IMG/VR virus record: IMGVR_UViG_3300026187_001902
Span: 1 to 33,276 of that record
DNA length: 33,276 bases
Strand: one strand, 5' to 3'
Origin: a virus
Taxonomy: Duplodnaviria > Caudoviricetes
Within the stretch, counting starts at the first letter, position 1. Every line of letters begins with the position of its first letter. The notes beneath the pieces were generated by a model that was not told where the DNA came from, ran no database searches, and saw only the letters and a program-made list of their open reading frames with translations. Shown here in pieces: positions 5-24,567 of the stretch. The position numbers and the translations under genes are program-made.

Positions 5-642
5 TTATTTTTTATCACTCTGAGTTGCGTGTTTAACACCCATAATAGTACCAATAATACTGAATGAATTGGTTAATAAGATACCAAATAGATTTGACCA
101 GGTTGATTCTATGATTTTAGAATCATGTCCTTGTAGTAAAACGAACACATATAATGCCGTTGTGATTACACCAACACCCATAATAACCCATAGAGCAACT
201 CTTACAATATTACCCATCAATTCAGTTTGTGTTTTCTTTTGTAGTAGTGAAAGGTCGGTTTCAGCAAGTTCTTGTGCTTGTTCTGCTTTAATTCTTAAAC
301 GCTCGGATTCTTCCTTCGCATTCACCGCTTCTTCTTTAGATTTAGTAGCAAGTTCAGCTGATGCTATTGCTTCGTTAAGGGCTTTTTCTAATTGCTTATT
401 AACTCTAACGTTTTCTTTAGCAGCTGCTTCTAAATCTTTATTTTGTTTCTGAACTTGTTTAGTTACCTGCAATCTTTTTCTGCGAGATTCTACATCTCTA
501 TTTTTACAGGTCTTTAAATATTCTATAAATTCAGTATCATTACTTTCAGCTTTTAAAACTTTTAAGATATTACCTTCTAAGTATATCTTTTTTTCTTTAG
601 CTAATTTTAGTAACTCATCTCTACATATCTTCTTGCATCCAT
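5..642 (-). CDS. Coiled-coil protein with two C-terminal TM helices; apparent 1-nt frameshift just after the start (true start likely ATG at 642, ~212 aa)
   Basis: The frame of ORF 5..472 stays open upstream of TTG 472 (KKICRDELLKLAKEKKIYLEGNILKVLKAES...RRKRLQVTKQ) with no in-frame start. An ATG at 642, 3 nt after the upstream stop, is 1 nt out of frame (ATG GAT GCA AG AAG ATA). E/K/A-rich helical segment, then hydrophobic segments VALWVIMGVGVITTALYVFVLL and LFGILLTNSFSIIGTIMGV. Confidence 0.7.
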
Positions 643-645
643 AAC

Positions 646-1143
646 TTACTTTTCATTCATTAACTCTTTCAATTTGATTTGTTCTAATCTCATATTGAAA
701 TTTTCTTTTTGAAGTTTTTCAATCTTCTCTTCCAATTCCTCTCTGTACATCTTAGTGATATCTTGCTGCTCTATATCACTTTTCTTTGATTCAATTTTTC
801 GGGTGATTCTTCTGATATTACTTAATGCACTAATTGCTATTACAACCCACCCCCAATTCATAGGAGTCCAATTAACATCTGCTGTAAAGTGTATAAGAAC
901 AAATAGTATTGCCATACCACCATACAAATACCCAAACACTCTTCTTCGTTCTAAACTACTATAAACCACCGAGTGTAGTGTACCATAACCAATTAACACA
1001 CTAATAACTCCAATATACCATAGATTTGGAAAGAACTCTGCTTCTAATACAACAGGTGCAAATATAAACCATATCAATCCCTGCAGAACCTCAGTTGGTT
1101 CTGAATCATGATATGTTAATATATGTCCTAATTTCTTTATCAT
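646..1143 (-). CDS. Multi-pass membrane protein (~4 TM) with C-terminal coiled coil
   Basis: Several hydrophobic stretches followed by a charged tail (YREELEEKIEKLQKENFNMRLEQIKLKEL). Starts 1 nt after the receiver gene stop. Confidence 0.8.
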   Translation of the reverse strand: MIKKLGHILTYHDSEPTEVLQGLIWFIFAPVVLEAEFFPNLWYIGVISVLIGYGTLHSVVYSSLERRRVFGYLYGGMAILFVLIHFTADVNWTPMNWGWVVIAISALSNIRRITRKIESKKSDIEQQDITKMYREELEEKIEKLQKENFNMRLEQIKLKELMNEK

Positions 1144-1144
1144 T

Positions 1145-1591
1145 TTATTTGTACACTTTAAATGGGTTTGTTTTGTTCACATACCCATCATAATCTTCTC
1201 TGAATTCTTCTAATCTTGGTTCGATATCATCTGATTTTACTAACCAGAATTGAGCACCAGCTGCTTTGGCTTTCTCAATCTCTTGATTATCATCTGATGA
1301 TGATATAATACCAATAACACATCCGTTACCATAATCAGTATTAATTTTACGAATAAGTTCAATACCATCAAATGATGAACCAATGATGTTCAAATCAACG
1401 AATACACATTCGGGCCTTTCATGATTTATATCATCTGGAAACCATTCTTTGAATTTTCTATCCGCCTCATCTGATGAGTTAAGTGCCTCTAATGAAAGAG
1501 TTATATCTAAGATACTACAAGCATCTTCAAATACCAAGTGGAATAAATCCTCATCATCCACTAATAAAATTGAGTTAATCATATTGCTCAT
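1145..1591 (-). CDS. Single-domain response regulator (CheY-like receiver, no output domain)
   Basis: Acidic pocket ILLVDDED, phospho-acceptor region VFVDLNI followed by DGIELI, beta4 IISSS, conserved Lys in WLVKS. 148 aa. ATGA overlap with the kinase stop. Confidence 0.92.
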   Translation of the reverse strand: MSNMINSILLVDDEDLFHLVFEDACSILDITLSLEALNSSDEADRKFKEWFPDDINHERPECVFVDLNIIGSSFDGIELIRKINTDYGNGCVIGIISSSDDNQEIEKAKAAGAQFWLVKSDDIEPRLEEFREDYDGYVNKTNPFKVYK

Positions 1592-2838
1592 TTTAATTTT
1601 ATCCTTAATTTTGTTCCAGGGTTACTTTTTTCTGCTGTTATTTTAAAACCATGTTCTTTTAGGATTGCAATACAAATATTTAATCCTAAACCAGAACCAC
1701 TTTCTTTTTGCTCCTTCTTTCTTATGTATGGTTTTGATAAGTTCTCAAACTCTGTTTGAGTCATACCTCTACCATTATCTTGTACACATAATGTGTTATC
1801 ATCTTCCATAAATATCATAACAGTTTTCGTACCACTATCATTATACTTCAATCCGTTACGAATTAAATTATCAATGGCTGTACAAAACAATGGTTCGTTT
1901 ACATCCATTGTGATTAAATCATCAATTACTACCTGCTTTGTGTATGATGTTGATGATAAATAATTTTTAAGAATTTCTTTTAAATCAACTTCTTTGGTAT
2001 CCAACTGAACATTTTCTTTAACTAAGTTTGTAAACTCTTTTACACCAGCATAAACCTTCTGAGTATGTTTTAATCCCTCATCTAACATTTTGAGTGGTGC
2101 TTCAATTCTTAACTCTTTGATTGTTTCATCATTTAATCTTCTTCTAAGAGATGATAACCCTCTTGGCATATAAGTATTGATACCACTATGCATATCGTGT
2201 CTAAGAATCTTAGCGGCGTGTTCTAAGTATGAGTTCTTTTGGTTAACTATTTCTTCAGCATCATGTTGTGCAGTAATATCAGTTGCTATTTTAAGTATTG
2301 TATCGTACTCACCCTTTGAGTTTTTGATTGGTGTATAGTTACCATATAACCATCTCTTTGAACCATCCTTAGCAACTCTCTCAAACTCACCAGTTATACT
2401 CTTTCCACTTCGTAGGGTTTCCCAAAATTCTAAGTATTCTTTACTTTTAGCGTATTCGGGAGTAACCATTGCAGAATGTGGTTTTTTAATCATATCACCC
2501 TCTGTACACCCGACAAGTTTACAAAAGTTATCATTTGCTTTAATGATGTACCCATCCATTGTTAGTGTAACAACAAGATTCGACCTACTGATACCACCCA
2601 ACTGCGCGTTTACTTTTTCTTCCCTAATCTTTATATTGCTGATAAACTCACTTACCACTTTAAAGAATGGTGGCATGAAGAATACAACACAACCCCAACC
2701 AAATTTAGCAAGAAATAAGGTTGGTTCACATAATCCAAATACAATGCATGTTTGAACGGCAAAGAATGTTAACATAATCATTCCAGCAACGCCTAATGAT
2801 ATTTTGGCGTTTAACGATATACCATCCAATGCTTTCAC
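1588..2838 (-). CDS. Membrane-anchored PAS/PAC sensor histidine kinase
   Basis: Two N-terminal TM segments. PAS/PAC: DGYIIKANDNFC...FWETLRSGKSITGEFERVAKDGSKRWLYGNYTPI...ATDIT. H-box KILRHDMHS, N-box DNLIRNGLKYN, G1 QDNGRGM, G2 GSGLGL. GTG start abutting the upstream stop. Confidence 0.93.
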   Translation of the reverse strand: MKALDGISLNAKISLGVAGMIMLTFFAVQTCIVFGLCEPTLFLAKFGWGCVVFFMPPFFKVVSEFISNIKIREEKVNAQLGGISRSNLVVTLTMDGYIIKANDNFCKLVGCTEGDMIKKPHSAMVTPEYAKSKEYLEFWETLRSGKSITGEFERVAKDGSKRWLYGNYTPIKNSKGEYDTILKIATDITAQHDAEEIVNQKNSYLEHAAKILRHDMHSGINTYMPRGLSSLRRRLNDETIKELRIEAPLKMLDEGLKHTQKVYAGVKEFTNLVKENVQLDTKEVDLKEILKNYLSSTSYTKQVVIDDLITMDVNEPLFCTAIDNLIRNGLKYNDSGTKTVMIFMEDDNTLCVQDNGRGMTQTEFENLSKPYIRKKEQKESGSGLGLNICIAILKEHGFKITAEKSNPGTKLRIKLK

Positions 2839-3039
2839 TTATAAATCTGCTTTTTTGAATCCACATTTAGCGAAGAACCATTTTGATGGACAGAACCCAG
2901 TCCAAACACCAACGTTCAACATAAATGTTACAAAGATTACTACTCCCCAAGATTCTAAAAAATAACCTGATAAGAGTACGATTGACATTAAAAGATACAC
3001 CATACGTGTATCAGTAATACTATTTAGAAGTTCCTTCAT
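2839..3039 (-). CDS. DUF2892/YgaP-like small inner-membrane protein
   Basis: 66 aa with two hydrophobic helices and a GVWTGFCP motif, matching the G-x-x-G-[FW]-C-P pattern of YgaP-like TM domains. Confidence 0.7.
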   Translation of the reverse strand: MKELLNSITDTRMVYLLMSIVLLSGYFLESWGVVIFVTFMLNVGVWTGFCPSKWFFAKCGFKKADL

Positions 3040-3463
3040 TTCTAGCTCCTTTATGTTTATCTATTCTATCTAAAATTTCATTAAGTAATTCATTTTTAAT
3101 GAAACCTGCCATAGATGCATTTTTAAGAGCCGAAATCAATTGGAATACTAAGAATGGTGCTAATATGGTTTCAGATAACCAACCAGTTCCTTTAAATCCT
3201 AATTCAATTGATAGTATGACTGTGAGAATCAATTCCCACGCAAAAATGTTTTTCAAAACTCTGAGTGCTTTATATGTTTTAAAACCCTCTCTTTTAATTC
3301 CTGCGATGATTCCAAAGAACCCATCTAATAACATTACACATATAATGGCGAGGTATTGTTCAGTATTATTTGCGGTTAAATCCATAAAATAACTTCCCAT
3401 AAAACCACAAAGTGCGGATACCCCCATTATAAATTGGGTTACTTTCGATTGTATCATTTCCAT
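3020..3463 (-). CDS. Phage holin (Phage_holin_4_1-like)
   Basis: Multiple TM segments and the family-like pattern LLDGFFGIIAGIK...FKTYKA...QLISALKNA. Lies downstream of an endolysin. Start moved from 3478 to ATG 3463 because a small ORF ends at 3468. Confidence 0.75.
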   Translation of the reverse strand: MEMIQSKVTQFIMGVSALCGFMGSYFMDLTANNTEQYLAIICVMLLDGFFGIIAGIKREGFKTYKALRVLKNIFAWELILTVILSIELGFKGTGWLSETILAPFLVFQLISALKNASMAGFIKNELLNEILDRIDKHKGARNEGTSK

Positions 3464-3467
3464 CTTA

Positions 3468-3584
3468 TTACATTCCATAATTAAAAGTTTGGATTAAAGC
3501 AACCTTCAACCTAATCAGTATTCTCTTTCTCCAAGATAATGATTTAAACTCTTTTGTATTAAAAATATCTTCTAATTCTTTCAT
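3468..3584 (-). CDS. Unannotated 38-aa peptide with cationic/hydrophobic C-terminal half (MKELEDIFNTKEFKSLSWRKRILIRLKVALIQTFNYGM)
   Basis: Translated by hand. ATG overlaps the amidase stop (TAATG) and the ORF fills the amidase-holin gap. Confidence 0.7.
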   Translation of the reverse strand: MKELEDIFNTKEFKSLSWRKRILIRLKVALIQTFNYGM

Positions 3585-4465
3585 TATAACCCTAATAACA
3601 TATCGATGAGTTCTGGTTGTGGGAACATATCAACTTTATCTTTACGAGTATTTGTATGTGTCCACATTCCTTTTACTCTACCATAGTATGCATCTTCATT
3701 CCACTCAAATCCATCTGCACCTTTTTTCTTAATCTCTTCTACCAATCCTTTACGAACATCGATATTATCTCTTTCAGCAATCCAAAGTATCCACTTTCTA
3801 AGTGCTTCGATTTGTGCATCTGAATAACGATGCCATACTTTGTGTCCTCTAAATTCTTTTGGAAGTACTACCAGTTCTGAATCTGCGACGGTAGTTCCCG
3901 CATATGTTTTTCCGTTTACAACATAACCAAAATTACACACTTCAATTGCTACTGAATGGGTATGCATATGTTGTGAACCATTCTTTCCTAAGTGCCATCC
4001 GTAACCACCTTCTGGAAATGCTTGTACCATTTCACCATCATATTTGGTATCGTTACCTTTTACTGATTGACCACCTAATACGAATTCAGTTGCAACTGCA
4101 CCTCTTGAATCTCTACCCCATTGGTCTATACAATTATATGGATTGTGCCATCCGGCAGTATGGTGTAGGAAAACGTACTCTTTATTTGTTGGACCTGATT
4201 TGTACTCACCAGGTGGAAGGAAGTGTCTATTTACGATTAATCCGTTTTCCGTTGTGTAAACCTTTTCCGAATTATCAGTAGTAGCAAGACCCATAGCATC
4301 CCAAGTGGCAGGGCCCACAATACCATCAGCGGCCAATCCATTTTTAGATTGCCACTCTTTAACTGCTTTTTCAGTACCTTTACCGAAGATGCCATCTGCG
4401 CCAATTTCAAGAAACTCCTGTAATTCTTTTACTTCAGTTCCACGCGAACCAACTCTTAATAACAT
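3584..4465 (-). CDS. Endolysin: PG_binding_1 domain plus N-acetylmuramoyl-L-alanine amidase (Amidase_2)
   Basis: N-terminal LRVGSRGTEVKELQ...ADGIFGKGT...ADGIVGPATW. Catalytic-domain motifs FLHHTAG, AIEVCNFG, YSDAQIEAL, WTHTNTRKDKVD. Confidence 0.9.
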   Translation of the reverse strand: MLLRVGSRGTEVKELQEFLEIGADGIFGKGTEKAVKEWQSKNGLAADGIVGPATWDAMGLATTDNSEKVYTTENGLIVNRHFLPPGEYKSGPTNKEYVFLHHTAGWHNPYNCIDQWGRDSRGAVATEFVLGGQSVKGNDTKYDGEMVQAFPEGGYGWHLGKNGSQHMHTHSVAIEVCNFGYVVNGKTYAGTTVADSELVVLPKEFRGHKVWHRYSDAQIEALRKWILWIAERDNIDVRKGLVEEIKKKGADGFEWNEDAYYGRVKGMWTHTNTRKDKVDMFPQPELIDMLLGL

Positions 4466-4482
4466 ATTTTAACTCCATTTCG

Positions 4483-4788
4483 TTACTTACGTTTTCCTTG
4501 ACAATGTGCTCTCTGAGAAAACCCTTTTGGATTATTACAATCTATACTTCTTTTGTATTTATCCGACCATTCCTCATCGATTTTTTTAATTAATGCTTCC
4601 AACTCCATCTCAACTTTGTTTGGTAATCCCTTATGTTTGGTTGATGCGTATTTTTTTAAATCTGATTTTGTCATTCCTTTAGCTGTATCTCTAATATCTT
4701 TAGATACATCTGAAGGTTTAACATCACCTTTTTTAAGTGCATATGCCAACCCCATATATTTTTGTTGAGCTTTAGATTTAGCGGGCAT
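4483..4788 (-). CDS. Small basic protein, DUF3008-like N-terminus plus Cys/His C-terminal motif
   Basis: MPAKSKAQQK...LAYALKKG...LKKYASTKHKGLP resembles DUF3008. Tail WSDKYKRSIDCNNPKGFSQRAHC. Confidence 0.7.
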   Translation of the reverse strand: MPAKSKAQQKYMGLAYALKKGDVKPSDVSKDIRDTAKGMTKSDLKKYASTKHKGLPNKVEMELEALIKKIDEEWSDKYKRSIDCNNPKGFSQRAHCQGKRK

Positions 4789-4812: not shown

Positions 4813-4820
4813 TATAAATA
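4813..4820 (-). promoter_or_regulatory. TATTTATA candidate late-promoter element
   Basis: Intergenic, upstream of the DUF3008-like/lysis operon. Same 8-mer at 23508-23515 and TATTTAT at 5354-5360. Confidence 0.4.
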
Positions 4821-4824
4821 TGTA

Positions 4825-5362: not shown

Positions 5363-6559
5363 TCAATTTAGATGAATCAATGAATTTTCGTAAGTTTTTA
5401 CCTTATTAACATTCACTCTAAATATATCTAATTCAAACTCACCAACCTCAATTTCAGAGTTCTCAAATATCATAGATAACTCAGTTATTGTATTATATGA
5501 ATATTGGGTTAATTTATTTGCATCAAAACTAATTTCAATATCAGAATCTACATCTACATTGATTCTTTTAGTTAAATCAAACTGAGTATTTGGTTGTTCT
5601 AACTCAATATATTCTTTGATTTTATCAGAATCCAAATCTATCACAATTCTACTACACCATGGCTCTAGCATATTCAATAACTTCTCATTTCCATTTTCAA
5701 TGTTAAACTGAATATCATACTTTGGTGGTACGATTGGTTTCATATAAGCATCATGTTTTACGAAGTGTCCCCACTTTCTGATAAAGTTACGAGTCGAACG
5801 AATGTTTTGCGCTAACCACTCATCTGATTCTTTTCCAACTTCGGTAATTGTTGGGTTGTATCGTGACCCCCTACAAGTTAAATGGAATACGGCACCTTCC
5901 CACGTCTGAATGAATTTGTACCCATTTAAAAGGAATCGGTTAAAGATATCAGAATCTTCTTTTGATTGTGGTGCGTATAATGGGTCATGCCCACCAATTG
6001 ATTGAAAATCTTCTTTGAATAAGAACCAGGGTGCAAAGATACCTTCAGTAGTTTTTCCTTTTGATTGTGGTAAATATTCATTTTTGAAATAATCTAAGAA
6101 CCAATTTTCATCAAAATCTTCAGGTTCGGTTGGCGCATTTTTAATAAGTGCTTTCTCAGGTCCTGGTGGGTGTAAATCTGGTTCAATTCGAGTGAGTGAT
6201 ACCACACTCAATGGTTTGATATGTTCCAATACAGATTCCAATGCACCAGGACAAAGGTACATATCAGCATGATAGATTCCTACAATCTTTGTTGGTGCTA
6301 CTTCATTAATCAATCTATCATATAAGATTGTATGACCTAATCTTGTCGGACCTTCGTTTCTGATTGCATGGAATTTTTTATCCTTCTCCATCATCTTTTG
6401 ACACCATTCCCATGTCCCATCATTTGAGAAATCATCTGCTACACAAATATGTGGTTTTGGTCCTGCGTTCTTTCTGATTGAATCATAAGACCACTTTAAA
6501 TACTTCAAGTTATTTCTTGAAGGTTGAATAAACGATATATCTTTTTTACTTAAACTCAT
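5363..6559 (-). CDS. Glycosyltransferase family 2 (GT-A) with C-terminal extension
   Basis: ISFIQPSRNN, VADDFSNDGT, YHADMY (DxD-like), IGGHD...KEDSDIFNR. Confidence 0.88.
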   Translation of the reverse strand: MSLSKKDISFIQPSRNNLKYLKWSYDSIRKNAGPKPHICVADDFSNDGTWEWCQKMMEKDKKFHAIRNEGPTRLGHTILYDRLINEVAPTKIVGIYHADMYLCPGALESVLEHIKPLSVVSLTRIEPDLHPPGPEKALIKNAPTEPEDFDENWFLDYFKNEYLPQSKGKTTEGIFAPWFLFKEDFQSIGGHDPLYAPQSKEDSDIFNRFLLNGYKFIQTWEGAVFHLTCRGSRYNPTITEVGKESDEWLAQNIRSTRNFIRKWGHFVKHDAYMKPIVPPKYDIQFNIENGNEKLLNMLEPWCSRIVIDLDSDKIKEYIELEQPNTQFDLTKRINVDVDSDIEISFDANKLTQYSYNTITELSMIFENSEIEVGEFELDIFRVNVNKVKTYENSLIHLN

Positions 6560-6583
6560 TATAAAACTTTTCTATTTTAACTA

Positions 6584-6615
6584 CTAATATACGAATAATA
6601 TTTAAATTATCCAAA
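6584..6615 (-). promoter_or_regulatory. Bacteroidota sigma70-type promoter (-33 TTTG / -7 TATATTAG)
   Basis: Minus strand TTTG-N20-TATATTAG upstream of the GT2 gene. Confidence 0.7.
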
Positions 6616-6616
6616 T

Positions 6617-7378
6617 TTATGTTGTATCTCCAAAAAACTTATACCTCACTAACGGCATATCAGAACGTTCTACTAAATCGTGATTGAACGCAAACTTTAA
6701 TCTTAATGGTAATATTTTCATAAGAACTAATTGATGATACATTAATCTGTGATTTGATATACCTTTATTACCCATTAGGTCTGGATTATCAATACTGTAT
6801 TGTTGTATGTTTTCATATATATCCACAAACCTATCCATATCATCTGAATTACCGAAACACCAAATATCTTGTAAAGAGCGATTGTATGCACCATGTGGCC
6901 ATCCCATTTGTGCACCATTAAATTGCTGTCTCCAATTTGGTACATAAAAATAATTTGTATCAAACTTTGAAAAATCAACATCAGTTTGCCATGCAATATC
7001 TTGTCGAGATAGTGCTACAAAATCATATTTGAAATTGTTTTCAATCTCATACGCTTTCTTTAATCTCATTACCTCTCTACAAGAGTACCATCTACTATAA
7101 TGGTTCTGAACTCTACGAGTATCTGTTAGTGGTGGTTCTATTTTAAACGTTTTGGTTTGTTCAAACTTACTACCCTTTGGTTTGTATAAAGATACTATCT
7201 CTTCTTTCAAATCCACATCCCAAGAGTGTATAAAGATATCTATATCATTTACATCTAATATGTGTTTTTTAACATGATTAAACGCAATATCCAAAACATC
7301 AGATGAACTTTTTTCAGTATCACCTGATTTTCCTTTTACACTACCCAATAATCCATAAAAACACAATGCTACTTTCAT
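6617..7378 (-). CDS. Putative glycosyltransferase-like hypothetical protein
   Basis: MKVALCFYG...DIFIHSWD...SRWYS...YDFVALSRQDI...QDIWCFG, a pattern common in phage and giant-virus glycan loci. Activity is inferred. Confidence 0.55.
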   Translation of the reverse strand: MKVALCFYGLLGSVKGKSGDTEKSSSDVLDIAFNHVKKHILDVNDIDIFIHSWDVDLKEEIVSLYKPKGSKFEQTKTFKIEPPLTDTRRVQNHYSRWYSCREVMRLKKAYEIENNFKYDFVALSRQDIAWQTDVDFSKFDTNYFYVPNWRQQFNGAQMGWPHGAYNRSLQDIWCFGNSDDMDRFVDIYENIQQYSIDNPDLMGNKGISNHRLMYHQLVLMKILPLRLKFAFNHDLVERSDMPLVRYKFFGDTT

Positions 7379-7746
7379 AATTCTAAATCTTTAATACCTA
7401 CATTTCTATCGATATTAATTGCAACTGCGTAATCTTCAGTACCATATGGTTTTCTATCATTAATCAGATATCGTTTACCACCACCAATACCCATAATCAA
7501 TTGGTCATATATGATACCGGCTTTACTTAGCTGCAATTCTGTAACTGAACGTAAACTTTCTTTCCTACCAGTTGTTAGTATTATATTGTATCCCATCTTA
7601 TCCCACTCCAATAATTTTTCTAAAGTACCATCAAGCAACTCTAAGGTATGAGTTGGTTTTTGAGAATCGGTTGGTTTACTATGCTTTACCAACGTTCCAT
7701 CAATATCACAAAAAATAGTAAGGGGTCGTTTATCTGTATAACTCAT
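7375..7746 (-). CDS. Small HAD-superfamily phosphatase (capsule-biosynthesis phosphatase-like)
   Basis: Motif I IFCDIDGTL, motif II LTTGR, YDQLIMG, LIND. Confidence 0.85.
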   Translation of the reverse strand: MSYTDKRPLTIFCDIDGTLVKHSKPTDSQKPTHTLELLDGTLEKLLEWDKMGYNIILTTGRKESLRSVTELQLSKAGIIYDQLIMGIGGGKRYLINDRKPYGTEDYAVAINIDRNVGIKDLEL

Positions 7747-8677
7747 ATAACTTTTTCTTTACATTTTGTTTTATAACATCATCAATATCTGGTTTAATAG
7801 ATATAAAATCTGGATGTGATAAAACGTAATGTCCACAAATCTTAATCAAATCTTCTTTTTGGTTGATAGGGTCAAATGAATCATCTACCCACTTTACCCA
7901 TCTTTTTGAATCATAGCATATTTTCCAAAACTTATCGATATCAATATTTGATTCAATATACGAAATTGTTTCAATTAAACCAAATTCTGGTGCGATATTT
8001 ATGGAATCTAATCCTAATGACATTTTTTCTTTAATTAATTCAACGGGGATGTAATCACCATTGTGTTCTTTTGATATCAATCCCCATTTTGATGCAACAT
8101 CTACCATCTCAGTTAATCTTTCAGAATCATACTCACCCGTATTTACATTTCCTTTTAAAGATGTTCCACTTTGGATTACCAAATGTGTTATTTTTTTGAA
8201 TATCTGAAATGGTAATCTTTTGTTTACATCATTAACAAAGTCATCTAACTCATCTGCATCAAACTCTCTAATGGCCTGTTCAGTTCCAATCTCATACTGA
8301 ATATTAGGATTTAACTCATAACAGAACTCAATCATTTTTACAGTCCAATCTAACCCATCATCATATTTTGGATATTTTTTCCACGGGTCTATATGAATGT
8401 AATCTAAATACTTGCAATCTTCTTTAAGTGATTCAAACCCATCATCATCAGTATATCCCTGGCCAGGACCTGAGTGGTCTCTTTTAATTGGGAGTCTACC
8501 ATTTACATATTCTGCGAATTGTTTTGTAGTCCAATTGTTGACGTATCCACCATTCCACTCTACTTGCCTACGGGATGGTATAAATCCAATCACATTATCA
8601 GTTTCTTCTGAAAACTCTAATATGGTATCTACAACATTTTTTGTCATCGGGCCTACGAAATATTTTATTTTACTCAT
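7730..8677 (-). CDS. GatZ/KbaZ-like TIM-barrel (ketose-phosphate C4-epimerase / class II aldolase-accessory family)
   Basis: SRRQVE..GGY, RDHSGP, IHIDP, YEIGTE, KEHNGDY, INIAPEFG parallel the GatZ/KbaZ motifs. Confidence 0.7.
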   Translation of the reverse strand: MSKIKYFVGPMTKNVVDTILEFSEETDNVIGFIPSRRQVEWNGGYVNNWTTKQFAEYVNGRLPIKRDHSGPGQGYTDDDGFESLKEDCKYLDYIHIDPWKKYPKYDDGLDWTVKMIEFCYELNPNIQYEIGTEQAIREFDADELDDFVNDVNKRLPFQIFKKITHLVIQSGTSLKGNVNTGEYDSERLTEMVDVASKWGLISKEHNGDYIPVELIKEKMSLGLDSINIAPEFGLIETISYIESNIDIDKFWKICYDSKRWVKWVDDSFDPINQKEDLIKICGHYVLSHPDFISIKPDIDDVIKQNVKKKLYELYR

Positions 8678-8681
8678 AATA

Positions 8682-9464
8682 TTACTTATCTAAATATTTT
8701 CGTTTGGGCCTTAGGTCTGAAGGAAATGGTTGTTCATTTAACTGATTAATATCTACATCTAATAGATTAATATTGTTTTTAGATTTTTTAATTTCACTAT
8801 TGTACCAATCCATTTCCATTTGCTCTATTTTTCCTGGAGATGATAACGAACCACATATCTGATTGATTGGTATTTGTAGTTTCGGAAAAGGTCTTTTCAT
8901 TAAAAAACTAATACCCATCATTCTATTTTGATACCCACCTGGTAAATCAAAAATATCATATGTACCATCATAATATTTTGTTCTCAAATCGTAAACAAAC
9001 TCACGACAGCCATCAATTCGTTGAGTATCGTGAAATACAACTATACCAATATCACTAAGTAATGGATAAACCGCTTGTAAATCAGCCAAACACCCCCTAT
9101 ATGAATGACACGCATCAATAAACGCAATATCAATTTTACCACCAACAGTTTCTTTCACAACATCTTTAAATTCTTTAGAAAATGAATCTACCTTAGTTAA
9201 GGTATAATTATCGTAACCAGCCTCTGTAAGTAATTTGTGTACACCACTTTCTGAACCTCTAGATTGATATTGTTTTAATAACCCATGTGTTTCCCAAATA
9301 TCAAATCCATAAACGTGTCCACCAGTTTCTTTTGCCGATTCACATAGACTAATTGTGGTTTCACCTTTATTAACTCCTATCTCTACAAATGTTTTGGCTT
9401 GGTTTAGGTATCCTAATTCTGCAATAATACCTGCGTAATCGTTTAATGTATGTTTTCGTATCAT
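8682..9464 (-). CDS. Class I SAM-dependent methyltransferase (Methyltransf_24-like)
   Basis: FVEIGVNKGET, YGFDIW, IAFIDACHSY, GIVVFHD. Confidence 0.88.
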   Translation of the reverse strand: MIRKHTLNDYAGIIAELGYLNQAKTFVEIGVNKGETTISLCESAKETGGHVYGFDIWETHGLLKQYQSRGSESGVHKLLTEAGYDNYTLTKVDSFSKEFKDVVKETVGGKIDIAFIDACHSYRGCLADLQAVYPLLSDIGIVVFHDTQRIDGCREFVYDLRTKYYDGTYDIFDLPGGYQNRMMGISFLMKRPFPKLQIPINQICGSLSSPGKIEQMEMDWYNSEIKKSKNNINLLDVDINQLNEQPFPSDLRPKRKYLDK

Positions 9465-11005
9465 AATTGTAATTCTTTTGTTAATATATATTTTCCGTAA
9501 TTAAATAAAAACTTATTAAATGGATATTCGTGTAAAGGTGCCATATTAATCCATATTAGACCAGTTAGTGTTTTTACCTTTTTTAAATCGTATCCTTCAT
9601 CTTTTATAAAGTTATGTAATATATTGGTACATTCTACTAATTTTGAATTACATAGTATATAGCAATTACTTACATCTGAACTAAAGTACCCATTAGAAAC
9701 TATTTCGTGATTTACTACTAAATTGTGATTTAACTTAGCCAAATCATAGTAGATATCACCAACTTCCAAATCACCACCAAAATCTTGTCTCCAATCTATT
9801 AATGTATACCCATTATTAGTTTCTATAATATTATCAAGAATAAAATCCCCATGAAACTGAGATGGTATCCCATCGCTTAACCATTCCTTATCTAAGGATT
9901 CTACAATATCAAATATCGGTGGAACTTCAACCCCATTGATAATTTGTACAGTATCAGGTTTACCATCTAAATACTGATTAATTCGTTTCGTAGTTTTATT
10001 GATGTAAAACTCCCAACATAAATTATTAAAATCAACATCACCTGTTGATTTAATTGAAGGCATCCATAACTCACTATGAGCCCAATCTAAAAATTCAGAA
10101 AATGTTTTTGTATTTACTGATTTTGAAAATAGATTACCATCTGCCTTTTTGTATTTGTAAAAGTTTTCTGTGCTACCCAAAATAGTAGGAACTAATCCAT
10201 TTAATAATTCAGCCCTTTTTACTCTATTTTGGTTAACTTTAGTATCTGAGAAAAACTTTACCACAAAATCTTCAAAGAAGAAAATAGATTCATTCTCTTT
10301 ATCTAACACATCAATTGTTTGGCCAAAGTGATTTCTCGCATTATTAAGTTCATTCGTATTTCCAATATCTAACCAAAGTTTTGCTTCATAAAATTTGAAC
10401 TCAGTATTGTGGTTTAACATTTTGTTGATTACGTGTACATCTGATAACCCATAATGATTATCTAATTTTTCTAAACATTCCCAAAATAGATTATAATCGT
10501 TAATACCACATACACCAACATATGGATAATCAAAGTTGATTTCACCTTTCTCATTGATAGTATCTACATACCCATTACTTATCTTTAAGGTTCTGTATTG
10601 AGATGTTTCCTTTTTGTATGCACCAACACACCAATTCGAATTTGTATTGGGTATTTCTAAATTTGGAAGTATCGTATCACTTGCATGAAATATGAATGGA
10701 CATTGTAGTTCTGATTTAGCAGCCAGTATTGAATATCCCAAACTACTACCATCTCCCTCATACTTATCTACATTCACAAATGTAAAATTCCTATCATTAT
10801 AAGTCAGTTCTAAAAACTGTCTTACATAATCACCATAGTAACCTAATGTAATTACAAACTTAGTTTCTATTGGATAACTTTCTATTATATGAGAAATCGC
10901 AGGAATATCACCCACCCTAACTAAACATTTATTTGTATAGTTGGTGAGTTTACCCAACCTACTACCAATACCACTTGTTGTTATCAGTACCTTATACTCT
11001 ACCAT
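9461..11005 (-). CDS. Bifunctional sugar-phosphate nucleotidyltransferase plus APH/choline-kinase-like phosphotransferase
   Basis: N-terminal LITTSGIGSRLG..TNKCLV and WLDIGN. C-terminal FHGDFILDNII, LIDWR, GDIYYDLAKL. Confidence 0.85.
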   Translation of the reverse strand: MVEYKVLITTSGIGSRLGKLTNYTNKCLVRVGDIPAISHIIESYPIETKFVITLGYYGDYVRQFLELTYNDRNFTFVNVDKYEGDGSSLGYSILAAKSELQCPFIFHASDTILPNLEIPNTNSNWCVGAYKKETSQYRTLKISNGYVDTINEKGEINFDYPYVGVCGINDYNLFWECLEKLDNHYGLSDVHVINKMLNHNTEFKFYEAKLWLDIGNTNELNNARNHFGQTIDVLDKENESIFFFEDFVVKFFSDTKVNQNRVKRAELLNGLVPTILGSTENFYKYKKADGNLFSKSVNTKTFSEFLDWAHSELWMPSIKSTGDVDFNNLCWEFYINKTTKRINQYLDGKPDTVQIINGVEVPPIFDIVESLDKEWLSDGIPSQFHGDFILDNIIETNNGYTLIDWRQDFGGDLEVGDIYYDLAKLNHNLVVNHEIVSNGYFSSDVSNCYILCNSKLVECTNILHNFIKDEGYDLKKVKTLTGLIWINMAPLHEYPFNKFLFNYGKYILTKELQL

Positions 11006-11336
11006 AGTTATCCTCTAATCTAACAATATCATCTTCACCAAAGTAAGAACCTAACTGAACTTCAATAAATACTAAATCAGTATCACCTGTATTTTTCATT
11101 TGATGTTTTGCTTCAACTGGAATTTGTAATACATCTCCTGCAGTTACATTGTGTAGTTCATCATTAAGTTTTAACTCACCACTACCCTCTACTAAAATCC
11201 AAACTTCAGACCTTTTAAAGTGGTATTGATAACTTGGCGCCTGACCAGGTTTGATTACAATTCTTTTGACCTTACACTTATCATTATCTAAGAGGTTTTC
11301 AAAATCACCCCACGGTCTTTCTTCTTTATAATTCAT
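10992..11336 (-). CDS. Stand-alone cupin, type II mannose-6-phosphate isomerase domain
   Basis: ERPWG, KRIVIKPG, QYHFKRSEVW, FIEVQLGSYFGEDDIVRLEDNYGR. Confidence 0.9.
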   Translation of the reverse strand: MNYKEERPWGDFENLLDNDKCKVKRIVIKPGQAPSYQYHFKRSEVWILVEGSGELKLNDELHNVTAGDVLQIPVEAKHQMKNTGDTDLVFIEVQLGSYFGEDDIVRLEDNYGRV

Positions 11337-12258
11337 CGGTTACTATTTCTTTTATATGTTTCAAAAACGATTCTTCTGTATACAAGTTCTTATAGTTTTC
11401 TTTTGCTGAAAGTGAACATTCTTTGTAGAATCCTTCATCGTTTGCCAATTTGGTTGCAAGTTTTCGTGCACCTTCAATATCACCATCAGATACACTCAAT
11501 AATGGATGTAAGTATTTTTGGGTGTTTATCGTATCATATGATATGCATGGAATTCCTAAGTATGCACAATTTAGATTAAAAGTTCCTGCTGCTGCAGTTC
11601 CTAATTGTACCCCATATTTGTGTTTAGATAATTCATATATCCACTCTATCCACGTCATCCATGGTAAGTGATTTATATCTAATAACCTCTCATCTGGTTT
11701 CATTCTACCAGTAGTTATTGCACTTATATTATCATCTAATATTTTACCAATTAAATAAGAATCAAATCCTCTATATGCGGATACCCAATTGCCACCAACT
11801 GCAACACCTTTACGTTCTCCATCATACTCTTTTACATAATCAGTTATCATTAAAGATGGTAATAACTCACATCTAACATCTGTAATTCCTTTGTAGTATC
11901 TTAAATCCATATCATTATGACAGAAGATTATATCCATACTTTGTAGTACTGAATGATACCACAACTGAGCCTGAATAGAACCATCCTGCCAATACCAATA
12001 TGTACTTTCCTGCATAGTAGATATCTTCTTACATAATCTACGCATATGTTCTACAAGTGGAAAGTTAAATAGATGTTCTTTATTTTTAGGTATGATTAAA
12101 ATCCCCAAATCAAACTCACCATCAAATGAATCTATTTTTGTAACTGGAATGTGAGTGGCATCCAATGCACAAACCCACGCCATATCGGTTCTCATATTAG
12201 GGTTGTTTCGTGGCACTTTACCAACGTATCCTGCTTCACTAAAAAATGCTACTCTCAT
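11326..12258 (-). CDS. Putative GT-B glycosyltransferase
   Basis: MRVAFFSE N-terminus, C-terminal AAGTFNLNCAYLGIPCISY, and context in the glycan island. Confidence 0.65.
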   Translation of the reverse strand: MRVAFFSEAGYVGKVPRNNPNMRTDMAWVCALDATHIPVTKIDSFDGEFDLGILIIPKNKEHLFNFPLVEHMRRLCKKISTMQESTYWYWQDGSIQAQLWYHSVLQSMDIIFCHNDMDLRYYKGITDVRCELLPSLMITDYVKEYDGERKGVAVGGNWVSAYRGFDSYLIGKILDDNISAITTGRMKPDERLLDINHLPWMTWIEWIYELSKHKYGVQLGTAAAGTFNLNCAYLGIPCISYDTINTQKYLHPLLSVSDGDIEGARKLATKLANDEGFYKECSLSAKENYKNLYTEESFLKHIKEIVTDEL

Positions 12259-12890
12259 TTTAAAAATAATTGTTTTAGGTTAAATTGTTCTACTAACGGA
12301 ATCCCTTTTTTGGAACTCTGAAAATGTGTATGGAATCCTCTAATAACCTCTTCATCAAAATATGGTCGATGTAATTGAGATTTAAATTGTTTTAACATAT
12401 TCAACTTTGTATCATATTGATTACCGATATCAACGAATACGTTTGGAATCCAATCACCCAAAGTGCTTGGTGAACAATACTCAATTAAGGATATTGATTT
12501 AATCCTACTCAACGGCCATCCAAAGGAAGATACAATCTTATGTTCAAAATGACTATCATTTTCAGATGGTGTAATGATTGCATCATAATCGGTTAGATTA
12601 GTGAAGTGTTTTTCAATGTATCCAATCCACTCATCAGTTCCTAAATCTTTTAGAAACCGATGTGGTGTAAAAAACAAAGTATGGTTCTTTGAGTTTGATA
12701 CTTCCCAACTTAATTTTACTTCATTAAGTCGATTAGCGTCAGTAGTTGAATCACAATCACCACCTTGTGTTAAACATAACACATCAAAATGGGTATCTTT
12801 GTACTTAATTATTGTACCACCCAAACTATACTCTACATCATCAGGATGTGGTGCCAAACATAATACTCTATCAAATTCTAAAAACTTCAT
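12255..12890 (-). CDS. PIG-L/LmbE-family de-N-acetylase
   Basis: LAPHPDDVE..GGTI, DSHFEH, PNVFVDI, FKSQ. Confidence 0.9.
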   Translation of the reverse strand: MKFLEFDRVLCLAPHPDDVEYSLGGTIIKYKDTHFDVLCLTQGGDCDSTTDANRLNEVKLSWEVSNSKNHTLFFTPHRFLKDLGTDEWIGYIEKHFTNLTDYDAIITPSENDSHFEHKIVSSFGWPLSRIKSISLIEYCSPSTLGDWIPNVFVDIGNQYDTKLNMLKQFKSQLHRPYFDEEVIRGFHTHFQSSKKGIPLVEQFNLKQLFLK

Positions 12891-13696
12891 ATTGATTTAA
12901 ACTCATTCTTTGTAAATATTTTAATCCCTCTTCTTCTCAAATAATCTCTCAAATCTTCTGATAAATTATTTGAATATCCAATAATTGTTTTATCAATGAT
13001 ATTATATGTTGTCAATCCATCTGATTGTTTCAATGTAATATCATATGTAGAACTATCATATGAAACATCAAAAGAATAATCACCCTTCCATGCAATCAAA
13101 GTTTCCCAATCAGATAATATATCGTTTACTAATTCTGATTTTCTCTCATCACTAACATTTTGTGGATAATAGTTTTCTTTGATAACCTTACATGGACTAC
13201 CTGCAGCCAAACTACCTTCAGGAATACTTCTGTTTAATGTTGAACCAATACCAATTACGGTATTAGAACCAATAGTAACATTTGGTAAAACAATACATCG
13301 TGCAGGTAACCAAACATTATTACCAATTGTTACTGGCCCAAAATCTGCAGGAAATCCTTTGGTGATATCCAACCACGCACCATGTGTCCATATCATCACC
13401 TCACCACCAATTCCTACATTATCCCCAATAGTTACTGTATCCGATGGATTGATTATAGTTCTCTCAAAGATACCTACATTTTTACCAATCTTAACTTTGG
13501 AATTTGGGCCATAACACCCACCTCTACCAACTTCTACACCTTCACACATATAGAGGCCTTCTTCAGCCTCAAATGATGTACAAGTGATTTTACATCCATT
13601 TTTAATTACTGAGTTTGCTCCTAATACAAACGTATCACACTCAATAATCACATTGTCCCCAATTTTAGCAGTTGGGTGTACTTCGTATTTTTTCAT
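12887..13696 (-). CDS. Hexapeptide-repeat (left-handed beta-helix) acyltransferase
   Basis: VHPTAKIGDNV, VTIGDNVGIG..IWTH, PVTIGNNVWL, AAGSPCKVI. Start moved to ATG 13696 (MKKYEV), 1 nt after the upstream stop. Confidence 0.88.
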   Translation of the reverse strand: MKKYEVHPTAKIGDNVIIECDTFVLGANSVIKNGCKITCTSFEAEEGLYMCEGVEVGRGGCYGPNSKVKIGKNVGIFERTIINPSDTVTIGDNVGIGGEVMIWTHGAWLDITKGFPADFGPVTIGNNVWLPARCIVLPNVTIGSNTVIGIGSTLNRSIPEGSLAAGSPCKVIKENYYPQNVSDERKSELVNDILSDWETLIAWKGDYSFDVSYDSSTYDITLKQSDGLTTYNIIDKTIIGYSNNLSEDLRDYLRRRGIKIFTKNEFKSI

Positions 13697-13697
13697 A

Positions 13698-14462
13698 TTA
13701 ATCATAAAGTTCTTTATATGTTCGTTCCATCCAATAAGATACATCTCTTGAATTATTTGGTATTGCGTTGAAATGGTATATCCATCCCGCATCTAAAAAT
13801 CTTAATTCATCATTAAACCATGAGTGATTTGGAATGTGTAATAGATTCTTTCTAAATAAATCTTGTAGGTTGTAACACTCACTCATATAAGTTACATCAA
13901 TCTTATGTAGTTTTGTAAGATAGTTAATAATTGTTTGGTCAGTACCTGCTTTGATTCTATCATTCCACATATTGATAGTTTCGATATTATCCCAATAATA
14001 TTTCTGAACCTCTTTGTAAAATGGTATATGTGATTTATTTGTGATTTGAAACCCACCATTGAAATATTCCCAAGTATTCAATTTGGGTTGTTCCTTAAAT
14101 AATGCGTTTCCCCAATTCTTAATACTTCTGGTAGTCCATTCATAACATCCATTATTTAGAACCACCCCAAACTTACCATTTGTTTCATTAAAAAAGTTAG
14201 GTGTATTTGGGTGAATAATAGTATCTGCATCTACAATTAAAACCTGGTCATAATCAATACCATTATGTTCTAATATATCATGTACCCAATATCTCTGAAG
14301 GGTTATCTTAAAATGAGATACATCGGTAATTGGTTCAGTCCATTCGATGAACTCAACACCATTCATATCACACCATTTCTTCCAACTCTTTACTGAGTAG
14401 TGATATGGTGTACTACGACCATTTCCTAAATCAACATTTGGTATAAATACTACGTTTTTCAT
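13698..14462 (-). CDS. GT-A glycosyltransferase (GT8/GT34-like)
   Basis: LIVDADTII, YFNGGF, TDQTIINY, IYHFN. Start moved to ATG 14462 (ATGA overlap with the upstream stop). Confidence 0.8.
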   Translation of the reverse strand: MKNVVFIPNVDLGNGRSTPYHYSVKSWKKWCDMNGVEFIEWTEPITDVSHFKITLQRYWVHDILEHNGIDYDQVLIVDADTIIHPNTPNFFNETNGKFGVVLNNGCYEWTTRSIKNWGNALFKEQPKLNTWEYFNGGFQITNKSHIPFYKEVQKYYWDNIETINMWNDRIKAGTDQTIINYLTKLHKIDVTYMSECYNLQDLFRKNLLHIPNHSWFNDELRFLDAGWIYHFNAIPNNSRDVSYWMERTYKELYD

Positions 14463-15286
14463 AACTCGTTTATATAATCTTCTATGTTTGTGGTTGCAAC
14501 CCACCCCAACACATCAAACGCAGTATCATCGGTGTTTAGGGTTTCTCTCGCCTCACCTGGTTTTTCATCTTTATATATAGGAGTAATACCAAACATATCT
14601 GCAATTTCGTTCACAGAATGGTTGTTACCTCTACCAAGTTCAAACTCATGCCCATATTCTTTCTGATACATTATCATCGTTAATGCACTTACAATATCAT
14701 CAACGTGAGTAAAATCTCTTCTTTGCTCACCATCACCATAAATCTCACATTGAATACCATTTTCAATATTATGAATCCATCTACCAATCAATGTAGTATA
14801 TCCCCCTTCAGTTAGTTGGTGTGGTCCATATACATTATAGAATCTTGTGATAGTTGCATTTAATCCAAAATGTTTCTGATACAATGTAATAATATCCTCT
14901 CCCAAATCTTTTGAGAATGTATATGGATTTTTGAATCTACCACTATGTTTAGATGATGACCCAGCATAAATCAATGGAACATTTCTCTCTACACAAAATT
15001 TAACAATTTCATACGTTCCATTAAAATTTGTAGTAATGTAATCATCTGGTCGTTCAAATGATGGTTGGATTCTTGCAACTGCAGCCATATGAAAAACCAC
15101 ATCTACTTCAAATGGCCAATCAAACTTACGAATATCACCTTCGATGTATACACATCCCTCCTGATGGTTTGATTTTAAACCAGTGCTGTAATTATCAATT
15201 GATATAACATTATGACCATCTTCTAACAATTGTTTAATAAGATTTGTTCCTACGAACCCTGCACCACCTGTAACTAATACTTTCAT
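14459..15286 (-). CDS. NAD-dependent nucleotide-sugar epimerase/dehydratase (extended SDR)
   Basis: VTGGAGFVG, YAGSSS, YTFSK (YxxxK), RFYNVYGP, GDGEQRRDFTHV. Confidence 0.92.
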   Translation of the reverse strand: MKVLVTGGAGFVGTNLIKQLLEDGHNVISIDNYSTGLKSNHQEGCVYIEGDIRKFDWPFEVDVVFHMAAVARIQPSFERPDDYITTNFNGTYEIVKFCVERNVPLIYAGSSSKHSGRFKNPYTFSKDLGEDIITLYQKHFGLNATITRFYNVYGPHQLTEGGYTTLIGRWIHNIENGIQCEIYGDGEQRRDFTHVDDIVSALTMIMYQKEYGHEFELGRGNNHSVNEIADMFGITPIYKDEKPGEARETLNTDDTAFDVLGWVATTNIEDYINEL

Positions 15287-16689
15287 ATATTATCTATCAT
15301 TTCTAAAAGATTAGATGGTTTTAGTTCTGCATTGTGCTTTTTCATATCATCTAATCTATTCAAATCGTAAACACTTTCTAAATCAATCAAACCTAATTGA
15401 TTAAAATAATCATCATAAATAACATTTATTGGAACTAAATCATAAAAAACCTTACCTCTTTGTTTTGAGTTTCTTAAAACAGTTCTAACTAAATCATTTG
15501 GGATATCATTTGGGTGTCTGCCTGATAAAGTTATATACCCAATAATATCACCATTATCATTTTCCACCAAATGAGTCAGAGATGGTGCTAATCCATTTAA
15601 GAATCCACTACTTAGTGCATCTCTGAAGTTTTGTAATCTACAATACTCAGGATGAAATACCTTTACAAAATAACCATCTCCTTTATAAACCTCTCTACCC
15701 ATATTTACACCATCAACAACTCTATTGTATTTATCCTTTATAGTTGTTAAATGTTCAAAGTCCAAATCTTCTACTCTTACTCGCTCTGAAAATTCAGGCA
15801 ATCCCCATTTATAAAATTCAAAGTTAAATGGGTATCCTTTATGAGATTCTCTTTTGAAAAACTCTCTTATACCATTCCAATCATGCATATCACGATGTAT
15901 ATCTGATATGTGTTTACGTGCAAAGTAGAATCGGGGTTCTAAGAACTTATAACCATTGATATCAACACAATAGTTCTCTAATATATCATCATCACCTTCA
16001 GCACCAAAATAATCAAATTTAGGGTAATCTTTTGGGAACACCTCAACTGATGATGGGAAACTGATGTTTTGACTGCGAAGATTTGAAGATATGATTATAT
16101 CCAAATCATCATTTTTACGAATACCCATAGCACTTAAAATACCACTCTGGCATATACAATACTCAGAACGAGGAATACCCAAATTATCCATCTCAGATAC
16201 AATGTTTAGATTTTCAATTGGTTTAGTAGTTCTGATTTTCATATCATTCTTCCAAGGAATATCGTATATCTTATCAGTTTTCATATAAAATGGGAAATAC
16301 TTCTCACCTCTAATTAATCTACCAATCATCGCAAACCCACGATGGTAACTATGTTTCATAAATCCATTATCAAATTCAACTGGGTTACTTTGTAAGTACT
16401 CTTCAATTTCATCATCACTCATCGGCTTTAATGAATTATAGTATTCTTCCGTCATATTATCCCAACCTAAATCGTGGTGATTTGCAACATCATGTCTAAA
16501 CCCAGCAATCATACAATTGTAATATTGCCATGTCTCAGGAGTTAAATTTGGTTTTGGTGCTGATTTCCAATACTCTACAAAATCTCTTACTGTTTTCAAA
16601 TCACCATTTGGGTTTAGAACTTGTTTACTCGGGCCACCATTGGCGACCTCCATATTTAAGAAATAATCTAAACTAATTGGTGAATACAT
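15283..16689 (-). CDS. Multidomain hypothetical protein (unknown N-domain, nucleotidyltransferase-like, kinase-like)
   Basis: Middle QSGILSAMGIRKNDDLDII resembles a pol-beta-type NTase signature. C-terminal FVKVF, FYDLVPINVI, LIDLES resemble the protein-kinase-like fold. Confidence 0.55.
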   Translation of the reverse strand: MYSPISLDYFLNMEVANGGPSKQVLNPNGDLKTVRDFVEYWKSAPKPNLTPETWQYYNCMIAGFRHDVANHHDLGWDNMTEEYYNSLKPMSDDEIEEYLQSNPVEFDNGFMKHSYHRGFAMIGRLIRGEKYFPFYMKTDKIYDIPWKNDMKIRTTKPIENLNIVSEMDNLGIPRSEYCICQSGILSAMGIRKNDDLDIIISSNLRSQNISFPSSVEVFPKDYPKFDYFGAEGDDDILENYCVDINGYKFLEPRFYFARKHISDIHRDMHDWNGIREFFKRESHKGYPFNFEFYKWGLPEFSERVRVEDLDFEHLTTIKDKYNRVVDGVNMGREVYKGDGYFVKVFHPEYCRLQNFRDALSSGFLNGLAPSLTHLVENDNGDIIGYITLSGRHPNDIPNDLVRTVLRNSKQRGKVFYDLVPINVIYDDYFNQLGLIDLESVYDLNRLDDMKKHNAELKPSNLLEMIDNI

Positions 16690-16694
16690 AGTAA

Positions 16695-16726
16695 CAAATA
16701 TACAAAATTAATTTTACAATTCCAAA
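16695..16726 (-). promoter_or_regulatory. Bacteroidota sigma70-type promoter (TTTG-N20-TATATTTG)
   Basis: Exact -33/-7 consensus filling the intergenic gap. ATG follows 5 nt after the -7 box. Confidence 0.8.
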
Positions 16727-18702: not shown

Positions 18703-18704
18703 AT

Positions 18705-19628: not shown

Positions 19629-19631
19629 AGT

Positions 19632-20252
19632 TTACAAAGTATCGTAATACTCGTTTTGTTTTTCTTGTCTTTCGATTGTTTTTGGATGATGTAGTGCTAA
19701 CTCTTCTTGAAGTGGTAAATGTGATATGGTTTTGAATCCATCTAATTGTTCGTGCACTTTATTAATCCATTTGATATTATCTGAGTTTTTATACAATCTC
19801 CATTGCATATCAGGCCAGTTTACCCAACCATCTGAATTTACGTTCCAACCCCACTTTTGAATATGCTCATCAGTAAGTCCTGCGACTGTATTCACTCTTG
19901 GAACTAAGATTACATCCACATCATTCAATTCTAATATACCATGTATATTTTCCATCAACCCAATATCGGGTAGCTCATCTGCATCAATCTGAAAAATGTA
20001 ATCACCGCTACACAATGAATTTAGTTTATTTTTCATATTACCAAAATGACCATCGAATTCATTTGGATGCCATTGGAACTCTGCGTTTACAGAATGACTT
20101 CTTAGATAATCTTCTACTGCTTTACTACCATTTTTTGAATCAAACATTATTACAATCTCATCATTAGATTGTTTGTATTTTAATAAAAATGATACTAATC
20201 TTTGAATTTCTACGTGTTCATTACAAACTGGAATTGCGTAACTAATTTTCAT
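19632..20252 (-). CDS. Glycosyltransferase family 2
   Basis: ISYAIPVCNE, IFQIDADE, WPDMQWRL, WINKVHE. Confidence 0.88.
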   Translation of the reverse strand: MKISYAIPVCNEHVEIQRLVSFLLKYKQSNDEIVIMFDSKNGSKAVEDYLRSHSVNAEFQWHPNEFDGHFGNMKNKLNSLCSGDYIFQIDADELPDIGLMENIHGILELNDVDVILVPRVNTVAGLTDEHIQKWGWNVNSDGWVNWPDMQWRLYKNSDNIKWINKVHEQLDGFKTISHLPLQEELALHHPKTIERQEKQNEYYDTL

Positions 20253-20253
20253 T

Positions 20254-24557: not shown

Positions 24558-24567
24558 ATATCTAAAT

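Follow-up and report, generated by a model that had tools for sequence, protein, structure and literature searches.

Lysis time governs both the burst size of a phage and how quickly viruses turn over microbial carbon. The cases of lysis under signal control that we found in print are the superinfection-triggered lysis inhibition of the phages T4 and ICP1. It employs the holin T with the antiholins RI and RIII in T4 (PMC11413866; PMC8385771), and TeaA with ArrA in ICP1 (PMC7182436). This report concerns a gene run at positions 5 to 4,788 of a 33,276-nucleotide stretch of DNA from a tailed phage (Caudoviricetes; IMG/VR record IMGVR_UViG_3300026187_001902). The whole stretch is called the window below. 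Next to a phage lysis cassette, the run encodes a histidine kinase, a stand-alone receiver and a coiled-coil protein with two transmembrane (TM) helices, which we call the hairpin protein. On sequence evidence, these three form a real, conserved and virus-specific signalling module with an undescribed putative membrane effector. The best explanation, which we hold to be somewhat probable, is that a phage phosphorelay acting through the hairpin protein would set the timing of lysis in response to a sensed signal. A phosphorelay that is complete, virus-borne and equipped with its own putative membrane effector, and that is present on hundreds of IMG/VR contigs, would make it testable whether lytic phages read host physiology to time lysis.

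The module shares features with several described systems. It is like two-component systems with CheY-like receivers in that its kinase is of the Class I type (H, N, G1 and G2 boxes) and its receiver carries the DD, D, S and K residues. Unlike the known CheY-like systems, it is found in lytic-type phages, forms a tight sequence family of its own and has an undescribed membrane protein as its fixed partner. With the lysis inhibition of T4 and ICP1 it would share a signal-dependent, post-translational timing of lysis at the membrane. However, those systems as described have no phosphorelay, take superinfection as the signal and, in T4, sense it in the periplasm, whereas the sensors of the module are cytoplasmic PAS or GAF domains or membrane domains. 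No homologues of holin T, RI/RIII or TeaA/ArrA were found for the module proteins in Pfam, PHROGs, NCBIfam or PDB sequences (the ICP1 proteins were not compared directly). The staphylococcal LytSR system with LrgAB and CidAB similarly ties a kinase that senses membrane or metabolic state to holin/antiholin-like proteins and murein hydrolases (PMC4830213; PMC5717393). It differs in being cellular, in working transcriptionally via a LytTR DNA-binding regulator, and in its kinase family and effectors. The module has a TM-PAS kinase and a receiver-only protein, and shows neither the 5TM LytS sensor nor the LytTR regulator. Phage phiCDHM1 carries an agr cassette with AgrB, AgrC and AgrD and without AgrA (PMC7790227), whereas the module encodes kinase, receiver and putative effector. 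The cRec domains of jumbo phages are described as never occurring with a kinase (PMC7824862; PMC9503650), whereas the module pairs the two. Such a system goes unmentioned in the accessible part of a 2026 review of phage communication (PMC13389391) and in the main text of a survey of huge phages, searched by terms (PMC7162821). The first-pass annotation, a model's reading of the bare sequence, knew of no characterised phage kinase/receiver pair with this role, and none is described in the open-access literature that we searched. The phosphorelay chemistry is ordinary; what is new is the viral setting, the effector family and the link to lysis.

Conservation of the kinase-receiver-hairpin unit

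Kinase relatives were confirmed in 634 of 636 matched stretches in IMG/VR, and receiver relatives in 3,839 of 3,849 candidates from the protein collection. A first sample of 135 loci fell into 60 non-redundant groups. A second was drawn by hairpin motif and supplied 80 of 120 loci with flanks; both samples combined give 104 non-redundant hairpin loci. Left out of the neighbourhood counts were L168, in which the motif match lies outside the hairpin gene, and 40 short loci (L218-L257).

The hairpin gene follows the receiver gene in all 60 groups. Of the non-redundant loci, 89 have 2.5 kb or more of upstream sequence, and the triad is intact in 84 of them, a count that includes L137 and L138, whose receivers were missed by the ORF picker (82 without both). 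One of the other five loci has the receiver only, and four lack kinase and receiver, three being PAS fusions and one a shortened form. The conserved unit is therefore kinase, receiver and hairpin, which is smaller than the cassette proposed at first pass; amidase, holin, 38-aa peptide, YgaP-like protein and 4-TM protein are accessory. Synteny around kinase and receiver relatives holds for the hairpin and breaks down for the 4-TM, YgaP-like and holin genes (counts in Table 1). Purifying selection on the module is indicated by median dN/dS values of 0.07 (receiver), 0.23 (kinase), 0.21 (hairpin) and 0.13-0.36 (accessory genes).

The kinase residues H214, N324/N328, D354-G356-G358 and G383-G385 are invariant in 55 sequences, and HATPase_c is matched with an E value of 1e-15. 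QseC, CpxA and HK853 are the closest solved kinase cores, and no NCBIfam model reaches its cut-off for the family. The core is constant and the input varied, with a TM region only, one or two PAS domains, GAF-PAS or TPR; two kinases stand in tandem in 5 of 90 loci. The PAS domain of the window kinase is closest to 3EWK and Aer, which we take to be FAD redox sensors. In the receiver, D12, D13, D66, S97/S98 and K119 are invariant among 57 sequences of 73-99% identity. Intact copies are 142-154 aa long with one Pfam domain, PF00072, matched above cut-off. The receiver bears no DNA-binding output, which implies that it must act by protein contact. The first annotation had likewise seen a histidine kinase and a stand-alone receiver.

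Relatives outside viruses are rare. Among 185,579 prokaryotic genomes, 4 have the hairpin motifs, all of them metagenome-assembled genomes (MAGs) and each from a different phylum. A tail-collar gene or a type II topoisomerase pair is present on two of the four MAG contigs. In the two MAG cases tested, 35 of 35 family relatives, whose genomes are incomplete, lack the receiver. Plasmid-borne receivers are at most 34% identical to that of the module. No INPHARED phage record carries the receiver or the hairpin, and the kinase has distant partial matches there only. The searches identify the hairpin family as essentially viral.

Further genes are found in or beside the module at some loci. A conserved soluble protein of 176-183 aa with no known family (f5; L023:10783-11313 and relatives) is a possible fourth component; in one branch, its gene immediately follows the hairpin gene in most of 20 groups. 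At L066:9245-10870 and in L162, a long unrelated gene (541-580 aa) interrupts the triad. Signalling-type genes (adenylate/guanylate cyclase, metallophosphoesterase, YceI, stand-alone PAS protein) lie near the module in L153, L154, L177, L208, L217 and L015. A short microbial rhodopsin gene (192-193 aa) is located between the 4-TM and hairpin genes at L025:10200-10781, L026:10195-10776 and L017:7547-8125. The rhodopsin retains the helix-G lysine and, among solved structures, is closest to the viral rhodopsin OLPVRII. It is rare (3/97 loci, with none added by a further search), and light is a possible input to these operons.

The hairpin protein as putative output

The hairpin protein was modelled from the relative L001, the window copy being frameshifted. 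AlphaFold predicts a small helical N-domain, a long helix that runs into TM1 and a second TM helix (pLDDT 83). TM2 bears a conserved, one-faced stripe of S/N/T/G residues that ends in GxxxG (p 0.02), a pattern to be expected on the surface of an oligomer or a pore. The receiver is acidic (mean charge -17) and the hairpin N-region basic (+4), a pairing that is suggestive only. The predicted complex of the receiver with hairpin residues 1-80 scored 0.31 against a mark of 0.32 and is used neither way. Foldseek searches with models of the full protein and of the N-domain return its own uncharacterised viral family only, and the ESM Atlas hypothetical viral clusters only. PADLOC models, including those of anti-phage 2TM effectors, match none of eight module-related proteins, and PDB sequence searches with alignments of the hairpin, 4-TM, f5 and DUF5675 proteins gave nothing useful.

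The best argument for the function of the hairpin protein comes from its fusions. A PAS domain takes the place of the N-terminal domain on 13 IMG/VR contigs from four lineages, and no kinase or receiver lies within about 4 kb on any of them. An endolysin gene follows directly in 13/13, belonging to one of three unrelated classes (M15, GH19 or GH24), and a small holin-sized TM gene is adjacent in 12/13. The same membrane module would thus exist in one-component and two-component versions, which points to the hairpin as the output of the relay, to its N-domain as the docking site of the receiver and, with the adjoining endolysin genes, to a part in lysis. The one-component form is also a two-gene test system. 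The output had first been sought in two membrane proteins or the holin; the hairpin membrane protein stays as the candidate, and the 4-TM, YgaP-like and holin proteins are no more than accessory.

Further PAS-, PAS-PAS- and GAF-hairpin proteins are present among 110 representatives, where singletons may be chimeric; the single GAF-hairpin protein is unverified, as other singleton fusions were judged likely chimeras. Singleton fusions to SOUL, GT2, TsaD and Rpb1 were treated as likely assembly chimeras. No hairpin fusion longer than 371 aa was found, which is weak evidence.

Association with lysis genes

To label endolysins, family representatives were scanned against Pfam and PHROG, and family members were assigned to them by BLAST. 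The same procedure was applied to all proteins of 110-450 aa, whether near the module or far from it, and unrecognised endolysins would be missed at any distance. Within 1 kb of the module, 192 kb of sequence contain 46 endolysin genes (24 per 100 kb). A further 7 lie at 1-2 kb (169 kb of sequence) and another 7 at 2-8 kb (514 kb; about 1.4 per 100 kb). The enrichment has a binomial p of 4e-9 after clustering at 80%, not corrected for kinship. The neighbouring endolysins belong to unrelated classes (Amidase_2, M15, GH19, GH24, CHAP, glucosaminidase and phrog_3000/33083), to which DUF5675 may be added, a C82-like candidate lysin according to a preprint (bioRxiv 10.64898/2026.04.11.717860). Endolysin-linked loci are scattered across both main branches of a quick tree of 89 loci. 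In the motif sample alone, an endolysin lies within 2 kb in 16 of 30 well-flanked loci. Among the 57 loci with 2 kb on both sides, 28 have an endolysin or DUF5675 gene within that distance and 31 when Pfam holin families are added; a lenient count that takes in unvalidated small TM and spanin-like genes reaches 43. A family with a TM segment and a GAF-like domain (f288), picked by eye as a T4-T-like holin, was unsupported on testing and is excluded from the count of 31. The linkage to lysis genes supposed at first pass stands insofar as endolysins are strongly enriched within 1 kb in many independent combinations, and fails for 14 of the 57 loci.

Proposed mechanism and alternative explanations

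The kinase would use its flavin-type PAS domain to read the infected cell's redox or energy state; relatives have GAF, TPR, tandem PAS or TM-only inputs in place of this domain. Phosphotransfer from His214 to Asp66 is predicted from the family. The receiver may then dock on the small basic N-terminal domain of the hairpin, whose long coiled coil would relay the signal to the two TM helices; docking at this end is suggested by the one-component forms, in which PAS stands in for exactly that domain and neither receiver nor kinase lies nearby. The polar-striped second helix would oligomerise and either let ions leak or make contact with the holin, which would bring lysis forward or put it off. 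Depolarisation makes holins fire early, so a gated leak could set the lysis time. The hairpin would thus be a trigger or brake on holin-endolysin lysis, and is more likely to be either than to be the sole holin, since another holin candidate is present in 23 of 28 endolysin-linked loci. More tentatively, and at somewhat less than even chances, large aquatic phages may share a modular lysis circuit in which swappable sensors (flavin-type PAS, GAF, TPR, membrane, occasionally rhodopsin) feed signal-gated hairpins by phosphorelay or by fusion. If true, phages would actively sense when to lyse, and this trait would be linked to host redox, energy or light.

The main alternative, which we rate as unlikely, is that the relay controls the hairpin and that the output is a non-lytic membrane function, such as superinfection exclusion, ion or metabolite flux or late host energetics, with the lysis cassette as a convenient late operon. 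Several points count in its favour or against control of lysis. Lysis cassettes may simply be late-transcribed insertion sites. A recognised endolysin is found within 2 kb in only 22 of the 57 well-flanked loci, and 14 have nothing lysis-like within that distance even on the lenient count. Loci without lysis-like neighbours sit among tail or baseplate, DnaK, adenylate cyclase or PrkA/SpoVR genes. The other holin candidates just mentioned mean that the hairpin is not needed as a holin, and it matches no described family, holin or antiholin in Pfam, PHROGs, NCBIfam or PDB sequences. Its polar TM stripe suits any channel. A candidate late-promoter motif (Table 1) lies within 2.5 kb of the module in 25 of 71 loci against 16 of 71 in antisense, a weak tie. 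The LrgAB-like "antiholins", holin-like proteins under two-component control, turned out to be pyruvate transporters (PMC5717393). Against a non-lytic output, the endolysin enrichment is limited to the first kilobase (24 versus about 1.4 per 100 kb) and is not spread over late regions, and the PAS-hairpin fusions directly precede an endolysin gene on all 13 contigs, across three unrelated endolysin classes.

It is quite improbable that kinase and receiver act on host proteins, by cross-phosphorylation or as a phosphate sink, with the hairpin as a linked passenger. Phage interference with host two-component systems is known, as for PIT4 (PMC10714779), and the closest solved receiver, 3ILH, is a cellular response regulator (E 5.5e-5). 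Against this reading, the hairpin gene follows the receiver in 60/60 groups, receiver and kinase are missing from its vicinity where PAS replaces its N-domain, and identity to plasmid-borne receivers stays at or below 34%. Least credible, and largely refuted, is decaying cellular cargo captured recently and with no phage role: the hairpin gene has a frameshift in the window, there is a premature stop in L006, and L139 is in fragments, but the core is under constraint (dN/dS 0.07-0.23), about 634 kinase relatives are viral while only 4 of 185,579 prokaryotic genomes have the hairpin, the receiver is missing from 35/35 family relatives in the two cases tested, and the frameshift is missing from 7/7 covering runs, so that kinase and receiver stand as phage genes, as first proposed.

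Gene run in the window

Table 1. Features of the gene run and its upstream motif, with occurrence at related loci.
Feature	Positions	Strand	Remarks
Weak candidate for a phage late promoter of the whole operon, motif ATATTTATA	4813..4821	-	Just upstream of DUF3008 gene
DUF3008 protein, 101 aa	4483..4788	-	E 2e-13; opens the run; not conserved alongside the module
Endolysin, PG_binding_1 + Amidase_2	3584..4465	-	Accessory; replaced by other endolysin classes in relatives; near module in 19/90 loci
38-aa conserved peptide	3468..3584	-	Accessory; 26/90 loci; median dN/dS 0.36
Holin-like protein, Phage_holin_4_1	3020..3478	-	Weak match; phrog_199; accessory; this holin family in 27/90 loci
66-aa YgaP-like (DUF2892) TM protein	2839..3039	-	Conserved CP motif (alignment); accessory; 31/90 loci; dN/dS 0.13
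Histidine kinase, TM-PAS-HATPase	1588..2838	-	Core; N-terminal TM region, MmoS/Aer-like PAS
Stand-alone receiver	1145..1591	-	Core; no output domain
4-TM + coiled-coil protein, no known family	646..1143	-	Accessory; 16/97 loci; limited to part of the clade
Coiled-coil/2-TM hairpin protein	5..642	-	Core; about 212 aa in relatives; putative output; frameshifted in this assembly

The gene order given at first pass is correct, with every gene on the minus strand and tight spacing from the amidase onward: the first three junctions overlap by 1, 11 and 20 nt, the fourth abuts (0 nt), the fifth overlaps by 4 nt, and the last two have gaps of 1 and 3 nt. The genes it listed are present, and the DUF3008 gene (4788-4483) lies inside its range and was unlisted. 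Its holin label passes the Phage_holin_4_1 cut-off in Pfam (24.4 bits against 22.2) and is weak, falling below that of NCBIfam TIGR01593 (25.2 against 40.2). The DUF2892 label holds only through a homologue, L111, which scores 24.9 against a cut-off of 25.3 for YgaP-like_TM/DUF2892 (PF11127); the 66-aa protein itself has no Pfam match. It is a possible sensory helper. The 38-aa peptide is judged to be a real gene. The 4-TM protein has nothing above cut-off in scans of Pfam, PHROGs, NCBIfam, PDB sequences and PADLOC, and nothing at or above 0.9 in the ESM Atlas.

The first annotation also saw no internal promoter or terminator, and scans agree: sigma70 gave 21 against 25.7 and terminators 3 against 1.9, which is the level of chance. 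The motif TATTTATA occurs in 65 intergenic regions, against 7.2 in shuffled and 10 in reversed sequence, and is located upstream of the tail-region genes f11 and f14 in 4/4 cases each. RNA contigs from four salt-marsh metatranscriptomes take in every module gene and span several of the junctions; they attest the module in RNA libraries only, and do not show strand, level or a single transcript.

The hairpin gene (ATG at 642) has a 1-nt frameshift near codon 4 (position 632) in this assembly, which was overlooked at first pass. One extra base, giving the in-frame form, is present in all seven runs with contigs over position 632 (4 DNA, 3 RNA), and the gene is intact in the close relatives L001, L007 and L086. 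On these two counts, the frameshift is probably an assembly error or a rare variant.

Phage and host setting

Library scans show that the window encodes a family B polymerase, a sliding clamp, clamp loaders and a sugar-modification island; it is one entire contig and a fragment of a large, uncultured, aquatic T4-like phage. Related contigs with the same module reach 483 kb. By their labels, the runs that contain the stretch come from estuary, salt marsh, freshwater and soil. Genome signals make a Bacteroidota host likely: a Shine-Dalgarno-like motif precedes only 7 of 44 starts in the window, and TAnnTTTG-like elements lie upstream of the polymerase, the clamp and other genes. A phage-like contig in a Bdellovibrionota MAG (L138:6431-13794) has a triad with a soluble PAS kinase next to a PrkA-like/DUF444/SpoVR cluster, which hints at hosts beyond Bacteroidota.

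Three other features of the window, all on the minus strand, lie outside the gene run. A homologue of DruA (Druantia, DUF4338) is encoded at 28249-29466 between sliding clamp and clamp loader, within the phage replication module. The sugar-modification island spans 18 kb (5363-23485) and contains glycosyltransferase, nucleotide-sugar epimerase, methyl/acetyltransferase-like and de-N-acetylase genes. A second peptidoglycan hydrolase, a glucosaminidase, is encoded at 23982-24725, distant from the lysis cassette.

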